Shown one piece after another: positions 36,001 through 39,000 of a DNA stretch of 64,000 bases (position 1 is the stretch's first letter; every line of letters begins with the position of its first letter). The position numbers are program-made. The stretch covers positions 224,001 through 288,000 of the forward strand of contig CAVTBU010000005.1 in assembly GCA_963733035.1 (NCBI GenBank), given 5' to 3'. The stretch comes from Pirellulales bacterium (GTDB lineage: Bacteria > Planctomycetota > Planctomycetia > Pirellulales > PALSA-1355).

Positions 36001-39000
36001 GCGATCCGCGGAATCCTCACCGCGTCGACCACGGCCGCGGTCTGCCGCCAATCGGCGTCCTTGACCAAGAAGGTGACCAGGCCACCGAAGCCGCGCATGG
36101 TACGCTTGGCAACCTCGTAGTATGGGTGCGAAGGGAGTCCCGGATAGTAGACCCGCTCGATGCGCGGATGCGAGTCGAGAAACTCGGCCACGGCCTGACC
36201 GTTGGCATTGTGCCGTTGCATCCGAAGTTCGAAAGTCTTTAAACCCCGCTCGAGCAAGTAGACGTTGTGGGGCCCGTTGACCGCGCCGGTGATACCGCGG
36301 AGTTTCCGCACGGGCTCTAGCTTTTCGCTGGAACCAACGATCACGCCGGCCAGAAGATCGTTGTGTCCACCCAGGTATTTCGTAGCTGAATGCAACACAT
36401 AGTCGATGCCGGCGGCGATCGGCTGCACGTTATAAGGCGTGCCGAGCGTGGCGTCGATAAGCGTTTCCACCCCGTGCTTTTCACCTAATGCGGCGAAGCG
36501 TTCCAGATCGACCACGCTCAAATGCGGATTGGTCGGCGATTCACTCACGAGCAACCGGGTTTTTTTGTTGATGGCGGCTTCCATCGCGGCATAGTCGCCG
36601 GCCGGTACCTCGCGGGTTTTCACGCCGAACCGCGAGAGATGCTTGGAACAGAATTCGCGCGTGCGGTGGTAACACTCGTTGAAGAAGACGACTTCGTCGC
36701 CGGCGTTGAGCTTGGCCAATAACAAGCCCACCACGGCTGCCATGCCGCTTGAGAATAACACGGCTACTTCTCCCCCTTCCAGCGCGGCCAGTTTGCGTTC
36801 GACAACGCGTTCGCTGGGGTTGCCGTAGCGACCGTACTCCTCGCGCGGCTCCTTTTGCTCGATGAATTGAATCACCGCAGCCGTGCTGGGAAAGGTAAAG
36901 GTCGAGGCGCAAAAAATCGGGTCAGTAATCGAGTGGGCAACTTTCTGACGATCTTCGCCGGCGTGTACTGCCAAGGTGGAGCCACCGGCTGGATCGCATG
37001 CAAGTGTCTGTTGGTCTTTTTCGCTCATGGCGCCTGAAGGTGCCTTTCTGAAACGGACGGTTCGCGCAAAACGGACACGAGACCCACGCGCCGACACGAC
37101 GTGGCGAAGGAAACCTCGCCGCAACCAGACCAACCGCGACCTCACACGCAGCGGGCGAACAGGTCGGGCAACAAAAAAGCCGCGACCCTGCCCCACGCAG
37201 TCGCGGCTCACTTGTTCAAAGTTGAGATCGTCCTACCGATGGATATCGGCGAGGGCGATGGCACTTTAGCAGTCAGGCTGCAAGCGGCCGCAAATCCCAG
37301 GCGGTATTCTATCGTCTCTGGCCGAACACCGCAAGCTGCGCGTGGGTGCGGACGCCGCAGACCGTGTGAATAGCCGAGGACGGCCAAGCCGAACTGGACT
37401 CCCGGAACTCCTCGCCAGTACAATAGAGGTAATGGCTCCAGGCTTTCAGGCGGCCTGAGGGAGGCTTCTGTCGATGCAATTTCGAGGAACATTCGGTCTC
37501 GCGGCGGTCGCCGTTTTCTTTCTGGGCAATTCTCCAGCCCTTGGCGGTAATCCACCGCCAGTAGCCCAGGCGGTTCCGCCGGCGGTCTCACCCCAAATGA
37601 TCGACTCCCTCGTACGCGACCTTGGCTCCGGCAAGTTCTCCACCCGCGAGCAGGCCACTCGCAATTTGATCCATCTGGGAATTGCGACTCATGACGCCCT
37701 TGAGCGAGCGTTAAAATCGCCCGATGCCGAGGTGCGTCTGCGTGCCCGTTCCATTTTGACAACGGTCATCGAGTCAGATTTTCAACAGCGGCTGGAAGCT
37801 TTTGCCGCCGACTTCGACGGCAGCCAGAGCACGGCCTTACCGGGTTGGGAACGGTTCTCGGCCGAATTCGGCAACAGCCGCCTAGCGCGGCAGTTGTTCG
37901 TCGAAATGCAGCGTGCCGAACCAGACCTGCTCGAAGCGTTCGCCGAAAGTCCGCTGGCGGGCAGCGCGGCCATCAACGAGCGAACTCGCCAGATCCTCGA
38001 CGGCCAGCGTGAGTCGCTGATGCACCTGGGAACGTTGGCCAGCCTGCTGTTTGTTGCCGGAGCCGACGACATCCGAGTGGACGAGGACGGTTGTCTACAC
38101 ATCTTTCCATTCGTTGTGCAGTCGACTTACCACCGCAACCACAACTCACCCGAATGGCCGACGATCCTGAAGAAACTGGTTGGGCGGTGGATTGCCAAGG
38201 ACACGACCCCGTCGATGACCAATCAGAATCTCACGCTTGCCGCACAGCTCGAGTTGAAAGATGAAACGCTCGCGATCGCGACCCGTGTGCTGGGCGAAAA
38301 GGAGAGCGCGTTGGCCTCGCGGCAGATTTCGATCCTGATGATCGGGCGTTTTGGCGACCGCGACGACCTGGGACGCATCGAGCCGCTGTTGGAAGACTCC
38401 ACCAGTTGTGGCATGGTGCAGATTGACGATCCGCCACGCCAGGTGGAACTGCAGATCCGTGACATCGCGCTGGCCGCCATGCTCCACATGACCGGCCAGG
38501 ATCTACGCGAATATGGCTACCGCAACGTGCAGGAGTTTGGCCCCACGGTGTTTCAAATCGGTACGCTGGGCTTCAGCGATGCCGAGGCTCGCGACGCGGC
38601 ACTCAAGAAGTGGACCGCCTGGCGAACGGCGCATCCCGCGTCCTGAACCGTTCGACGAACGTGGCTACCAGGCTTGCTAGCAGCCGGCGCGGCAATCGCA
38701 TTGCCGAACTCGCTGGACATCGTAGTTTCTCTTGACGCACCGGTCGATTTCTCCGACCATTCCGCCCCTGCCCTAACGTTCCCACCGCGGCAACTGGGCC
38801 GCGCGAAGGTCCCCGCAATAGGTTCCACACCATGACGTTCGAATATTCGTCACGCTGCCGTGATTCGGTTCTGCTATTCGTCATTGCCATCACCATTTTC
38901 GCCAGCGGCTGCAACTCGCCCTATCGTTCGGATCAGGGCGCTCTGGTCGGCGGATTGACCGGAGCCGGGCTGGGTGCCCTTGTCGGAAACGCGGTGGGCA

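Follow-up and report, generated by a model that had tools for sequence, protein, structure and literature searches.

The RNA encoded just upstream of the cystathionine gamma-synthase gene (metB) of this Pirellulales bacterium is very probably a SAM-sensing riboswitch of the SAM-II class that turns transcription off. It lies on the minus strand of the window, the 64,000-nucleotide stretch that was analysed, and its compact aptamer is predicted to be an H-type pseudoknot (Table 1). This reading draws on the identity of the SAM-II core, its conservation, the gene context, complementarities within the leader and predicted nested folds, from which we infer the transcription start, the pseudoknot, SAM binding, termination and the order of folding. 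What is new is the near-absence of P1, the predicted P2-first folding order and the lineage; no new ligand or class is proposed.

Table 1. Features of the riboswitch locus and its genes, in window coordinates
Feature	Position	Strand	Basis or remark
Predicted sigma-70 -35 hexamer, TTGCGG	37329..37334	-	Below the 9-of-12 threshold
Predicted -10 hexamer, TAGAAT	37306..37311	-	17-nt spacer; start inferred at 37299 or 37298
Compact SAM-II aptamer, predicted as an H-type pseudoknot	37260..37298	-	Core comparison with SAM-V and RF00521; locus alignments
P1 of aptamer	37298-37297 with 37277-37276	-
L1, third strand of aptamer	37296-37291	-
P2a of aptamer	37289-37287 with 37262-37260	-
P2b of aptamer	37283-37278 with 37272-37269 and 37267-37266	-
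L3 of aptamer	37275-37273	-
SAM-pairing U of aptamer (predicted)	37268	-
Aminoacyl-binding A of aptamer (predicted)	37265	-
Spacer hairpin directly 3' of P2a	37227..37259	-	Folding; places the antiterminator arm beside the aptamer
Antiterminator strand, pairing with aptamer 37293-37281	37201..37214	-	Duplex and nascent folds; overlaps the terminator 5' arm
Intrinsic terminator	37170..37208	-	Outer stem of 9 pairs (37208-37200 with 37186-37178); a U run follows, to about 37170
Cystathionine gamma-synthase (metB), regulated gene 1, 401 aa	35823..37028	-	Closest solved relative PDB 1I41/1QGN
Cystathionine beta/gamma-lyase family gene, probable second operon gene, 382 aa	34614..35762	-	60 nt downstream of metB

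Identity of the aptamer

An initial annotation of this DNA had placed an RNA of about 45 nt here and had assigned it to the SAM-II class. The sequence was found where it had been located, at 37298-37260 (-), with the length corrected to 39 nt, and the class assignment held: comparison with the RF00521 consensus (SAM_alpha, the metA motif; PMC1273637) and with the SAM-V structure paper confirmed a SAM-II-class aptamer, for which SAM binding is predicted. The letters of L1, P2a and P2b are nearly those of RF00521, the C opposite A50 included. The annotation's statement that the SAM-II/V ligand core is kept was upheld, as all ten SAM-V contact positions (U8, U9, U10, U19, U20, G21, U47, A48, A49 and A50) are present in register, the L1-P2 spacing agrees with the numbering of that paper, and the P2 duplex with its bulged U47 and short P2a is found as well. 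According to the accessible part of PMC6061858, the SAM adenine pairs with U47, the sulfonium lies beside U9 and U20 and the amino acid rests on A50; the counterparts in the window are 37268 for U47, 37293 and 37282 for U9 and U20, and 37265 for A50. The core positions are invariant in all 15 aligned rows, although most of them were fixed by the search patterns.

Beyond the ligand contacts, the compact form and SAM-V (RF01826, PDB 6FZ0) have in common the G11 that ends the third strand, four pairs below U47 and an L3 that may carry a hairpin. As far as the same portion of PMC6061858 describes it, SAM-V has a four-pair P1, a 7-nt third strand, A18, a C24:G43 pair and translational action, whereas the compact aptamer has a P1 of two to three pairs, a 6-nt third strand, C18, G24:C43 and, at the window locus, a terminator. 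RF00521 differs in its six-pair P1, in a stretch of about 11 nt between P1 and P2b against 2 to 4 nt in most compact loci, and in lacking one G-C pair that the compact aptamer adds at the foot of P2. In the available text of PMC1273637, the discovery paper, RF00521 is likewise described with a promoter a few nucleotides before P1, an intrinsic terminator downstream and methionine or SAM genes; its hosts there are alpha-proteobacteria and Bacteroides, whereas the compact form belongs to Pirellulales. Terminators are named as the commonest SAM-II platform in the parts of PMC2258182 and PMC6061858 at hand, and we rejected terminator control as a novelty, this being the usual SAM-II mechanism. The long-loop family RF01726 (PMC2864571) is of the same class and is defined, in the consulted portion of that paper, by long inserts in Bacteroidetes and marine data; long-P1 Planctomycetota forms score 25 to 27 bits against it, and the compact forms tested gave no match. 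The Rhodopirellula-1 motif, as given in that portion, was rejected as the same element on its different sequence.

Specificity for SAH or another relative of SAM, in an aptamer derived from SAM-II, would go with a C rather than SAM-V's A opposite A50 (105 of 117 listed GTDB loci), with a truncated P1 that could reshape the pocket, and with the genes of no evident methionine link that follow some long-P1 bridging forms. We consider such a change very improbable: the RF00521 consensus has the same C, U9 and U20, which read the sulfonium, are conserved together with the contacts U47 and A50, and the context is metB or metK with OFF logic. C18 was ruled out as a mark of altered specificity, C being the RF00521 consensus letter there, and a register with a C18-G51 pair was dropped for want of covariation (99 of 116 loci, 99.9 in shuffles).

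The initial annotation had further reported that Rfam misses the aptamer and that the genome holds a single copy. No SAM family was reported at the locus at E<=10, and neither RF00521 (gathering cut-off 36 bits) nor RF01826 SAM_V (cut-off 41 bits) gave a match there; RF00521 returned no score in the 4 + 18 compact loci tested against it, and the best score of a compact form was 20.2 bits (L201), again with the six-pair P1 of the model absent. Rfam is probably blind to the compact form because P1 is cut from six pairs to two or three and L3 is much shorter. The element proved to be single: strict, loose and fuzzy patterns and nhmmer all led to one site in the host genome, with an nhmmer E value of 4e-13 and the next match at 0.053. 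In the same genome (92% complete), no SAM-I aptamer (RF00162, a four-way junction aptamer) was found at E<=0.1 with 150 of 510 candidates scored, and the metK locus has no SAM-II-like site.

The strongest new evidence for SAM-II identity comes from the sequences of two near-identical metagenome loci of 39% G+C (L190:771-1000 and the same coordinates of L214). In both, a canonical SAM-II RNA, which at 36.5 bits is over the RF00521 cut-off, and its terminator are followed by a compact copy with a terminator of its own and then by metK (TIGR01034, 381 bits, over cut-off); the compact copy of L190 scores 23.7 bits against RF01826. Tandem SAM-II pairs as such are already known (PMC9481103, in the part available). 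Long-P1 forms of the phylum with the same core come close to or over the RF00521 cut-off of 36 bits, with 36.3 (L010), 33.1 (L013) and 30.1 bits (L009).

Helices, covariation and folding order

The initial annotation's minimal P1 was borne out, with two pairs in the host genome and two to three in relatives. Pairing was assessed on a GTDB scan of at least 120 loci, of which four were dropped (L102, L111 and L114 as not compact, L116 for a middle too short) and 116 used, and on metagenome loci found with a pattern that placed no constraint on the P1 5' strand, positions 12-18 or the 3' tail. Of the 116 listed GTDB loci, 84 have the third P1 pair, against 54.4 +/- 4.8 in shuffles, as do 88 of 119 metagenome loci, against 54.4; slid controls did not rise above shuffles. 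A fourth P1 pair was rejected, showing no excess (51 vs 45.6). The GG of P1 recurs in 117 of 119 metagenome loci, where the P1 5' strand was unpatterned. At the third position the host genome has a U-U mismatch that leaves P1 with two pairs, as do 19 of the 116 listed GTDB loci. Elsewhere, when the states of this pair were mapped on a quick tree built from 73 of the 116 downstream proteins, A-U prevailed in Pirellulaceae, U-A in Thermoguttaceae and C-G in Lacipirellulaceae, with separate switches in L062 (U-A) and L055 (C-G).

All three P2a pairs form in each of the 116 listed GTDB loci, the 3' side of P2a lying outside the pattern. Two of them change on both sides in a hand-picked alignment (n=15), a count that 56 of 500 shuffles also reach and that is weak alone. 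Most aptamer pairs are invariant and hence uninformative for covariation; the third P1 pair and P2a covary modestly, with few independent events.

An operator or other promoter-proximal element read at the level of DNA would also fit the near-invariance, the fixed site beside the promoter and an 8-bp palindrome at 37291-37284. Of the alternatives weighed we give it the least credence. The palindrome is broken by a C-to-T change in 23 of 117 listed GTDB loci, pairs covary, and the compact copy of L190 comes after a terminator, not a promoter. L3 is moreover variable in length and accepts an insert: in the compact aptamer at L152:2940-3037 (-), L3 has taken up a hairpin of about 55 nt, which is tolerated, as expected of a loop that faces outward.

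As for the order in which the proposed SAM-II aptamer folds, a nested-folding model without pseudoknots predicted a free P2 hairpin for 91 of the 117 compact aptamers, compared with 2 of 117 for P1, and in the long forms P1 was dominant in 7 of 10. Given a P1 of only two to three pairs, P2-first folding is probable; P2 would pre-form as a hairpin, and SAM would then capture the 5' strand. This predicted order, a bold reading, is the reverse of that of metX SAM-II, which reportedly folds P1 first and whose P1 is described as a ligand-independent helix (PMC10907184, a review, in the part available). If the prediction is correct, the SAM-II P1, pre-formed in the metX RNA, can shrink to two or three pairs, and a 39-nt aptamer would be useful for folding, NMR and biosensor work and as a natural test of folding order.

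Regulated genes and expression platforms

The product of the first regulated gene is a PLP enzyme whose best matches among solved structures are 1I41/1QGN (357 bits; next, 305); no NCBIfam equivalog reaches its cut-off. We take 1I41 to be the plant (tobacco) cystathionine gamma-synthase. The plant enzyme uses phosphohomoserine and is itself under feedback control by SAM. In the host genome no metA match was found (genome 92% complete), and the only metX-like match, at C6:727437-728351 (-), is weak (124 bits) and lies inside a 663-aa open frame; both facts fit, without showing it, a role of the window gene as the committed step of methionine synthesis. Of 14 relatives, 11 have an ortholog of the lyase-family gene that follows, at 62-75% identity and at the same locus. 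The initial annotation had named metB as the downstream gene, and a homolog is indeed present in 75 of the 76 listed GTDB loci with >=700 nt of downstream flank. As the gene under control, metB stood in nearly all loci and not in every one: among metagenome loci with enough flank, 73 of 75 have a cystathionine gamma-synthase homolog and the other two have metK, these being the tandem loci of 39% G+C.

A TTG-type -35 together with a -10 hexamer lies just upstream of the aptamer in 103 of 117 listed GTDB loci, compared with 5 of 314 control windows. The distance from the -10 hexamer to the second G of P1 is 8 nt in the host genome, against a mode of 12 in relatives, so the transcript is expected to start at 37299 or 37298, either on the first base of P1 or next to it. 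The promoter region is common to the riboswitch and to a divergent 390-aa ORF at 37474-38646 (+), which has an N-terminal signal-like stretch and no NCBIfam match.

The initial annotation had wired metB control to a terminator whose 5' arm can pair with the aptamer. Such pairing is predicted at the window locus, where the terminator has -20.0 kcal/mol and the antiterminator duplex, of 13 pairs with one bulge, has -20.9 kcal/mol. Antiterminator pair probability is 0.95-1.0 in nascent RNAs of 98-118 nt and collapses by 122 nt. The full-length RNA without ligand prefers the terminator (-48.3 vs -45.2 kcal/mol), so the switch must be kinetic.

Across relatives, terminator-like sites occur in 77 of 114 listed GTDB loci; the controls gave 22 of 114 (reverse strand) and 10 of 74 (coding DNA). 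The 5' arm complements aptamer positions 11-15 in 58 of the 114 listed GTDB loci, that of the window included. This arm-sequence test was devised after the GTDB set had been viewed and was then repeated on the metagenome set, where 51 of 114 loci have such a terminator; among controls, one was seen in 41 of 5000 windows taken at random and in 0 of 221 from coding DNA. The arm-sequence test replaced a duplex-energy test, which scored whichever hairpin came first in a locus (in some, the spacer) and whose limit of <= -10 kcal/mol was discarded as non-discriminating: 211 of 418 unrelated terminator arms of the host genome reach it, and the best of them, at -22.6, beats the window locus. Pooling the listed GTDB and metagenome sets, an expression platform coupled to P2, predicted here, has an arm-type terminator in only 107 of 219 distinct loci, the other 112 being without one; the proposed wiring thus stood for the window locus and not for the group as a whole. 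Of these 107 loci, 78 have the antiterminator as the prevailing fold of the nascent prefix and 72 the terminator as that of the full length, and in 86 a hairpin begins <=3 nt from P2a.

That the aptamer binds SAM while the terminator is constitutive, with control exerted elsewhere through distant translation or RNA stability, is a reading we regard as unlikely. It has a precedent in the Sinorhizobium metA SAM-II, described in the available part of PMC9373788 as followed by a terminator without a predictable riboswitch-driven antiterminator, and it would suit both the half of the relatives that have no arm-type terminator and a terminator that is the equilibrium fold even without ligand. Against it, the 13-pair antiterminator dominates the nascent lengths given above, the core of the arm that complements the aptamer is conserved among stems with no other resemblance, pairing of the 10 nt preceding the arm exceeds that of their own shuffles in 73 of the 107 loci (kin not being independent), and the AUG of the window locus is about 230 nt from P2a.

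In the SAM-dependent OFF switch that we prefer, the RNA would start at or beside the first aptamer base. When SAM is low, the emerging 37214-37201 segment would pair with L1 and the 5' strand of P2, the terminator would not close in time, and RNA polymerase would read into metB and the lyase gene. When SAM is abundant, it would stabilise the L1-P2 triple helix, its adenine on U37268, its sulfonium at the carbonyls of U37293 and U37282 and its amino acid on A37265; the antiterminator target would be locked, the terminator would form and an RNA of about 125 nt would be released.

Seven loci without an arm-type terminator (L037, L068, L071, L082, L104, L121 and L140) have an AUG directly after P2a in the frame of the gene, usually with a second AUG 12 nt beyond the first. 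Five of the seven are in the tree, where a single clade, with titles of Rhodopirellula, Rubripirellula and Novipirellula, contains them all, and an AUG directly after P2a, its frame unchecked, is found in 8 of 114 metagenome loci. The position of these codons suggests translational control in the Rhodopirellula-like subclade. Five of these loci (L037, L068, L071, L121 and L140) also have a common ACGCGTCCC upstream in place of the usual -10 hexamer; ACGCGTCCC is perhaps a site for another sigma factor.

We somewhat favour a wider picture in which a natural 39-nt SAM-II RNA nearly devoid of P1 (two pairs, at the transcript 5' end) would fold P2 first, SAM capturing the 5' strand into the triplex, and would act by termination in about half of the Pirellulales and by occlusion of the start codon in the Rhodopirellula-like subclade, as one member of a broader, Rfam-invisible group of short-P1 SAM-II RNAs. 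One aptamer with two platforms in a single order would permit their direct comparison. The compact copy ahead of metK elsewhere suggests that further SAM-II RNAs so far overlooked may come to light with a rebuilt model.

Distribution and long-P1 relatives

Of 41 genomes sampled from the same order, 36 contain a 20-nt pattern at <=1 mismatch (reversed control, 0 of 41), and RF00521 is over its cut-off in none of the 41 with 85 candidates scored per genome; three weak RF00521 matches among them were rejected as lacking the SAM-II core. If the riboswitch acts as proposed, it would close a gap in methionine regulation that spans an entire order in which RF00521 is silent. The titled Planctomycetota records among the matches listed are mostly Pirellulales by title. 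The initial annotation had counted all 80 titled GTDB loci as Planctomycetota, which among the matches listed is true of 79, the exception being L102, a long-P1 form. Its count of the motif in 28 of 30 metB loci was higher than that of a search started from the gene, which gave 10 of 15 loci overall and 9 of 10 in the same order, that set comprising the 15 of 46 class genomes with a cystathionine gamma-synthase match at E<=1e-100. In the other family of the class the gene-first motif count was 1 of 5, one of the five having only 125 nt upstream. Gene matches at E<=1e-100 occur only in the order and in that one other family, a range nearly equal to that of the compact riboswitch. One pattern had 0 matches in viral contigs, and the second matches to the pattern in G441 and G440 were discarded because the 3' half is absent.

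No description of a short-P1 or Planctomycetota SAM-II RNA was found in a literature search mainly of open texts, the phylum table of PMC5473149 and Additional File 1 of PMC2864571 lying outside it; in one PMC1273637 supplement the strings Pirellula and Plancto are absent.

Several long-P1 loci have contexts of their own. At L009-L012 (about 1490-1560; G229, G290, G305 and G197, one genus of the phylum), a long-P1 SAM-II RNA and terminator precede an unannotated protein of about 170 aa and a cysteine-rich protein of about 90 aa; the L010 pair has no NCBIfam match. At L013:1332-1523 (-), two tandem SAM-II-like aptamers, each with a terminator, are aimed at the 3' end of a convergent gene, which we take to be leuB-like, and no convincing sense-strand ORF follows them. 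Tandem SAM-II RNAs of 42 and 32.2 bits at L111:281-468 (-) lie ahead of a short ORF, presumably phage-like from its appearance. The short ORF preceded by a SAM-II-like RNA at L102:1481-1560 (-) has a start that, in our judgement, resembles ADP-ribosylglycohydrolase, and immediately upstream, in the same orientation, there is a weak SAM-I match (28.2 bits).
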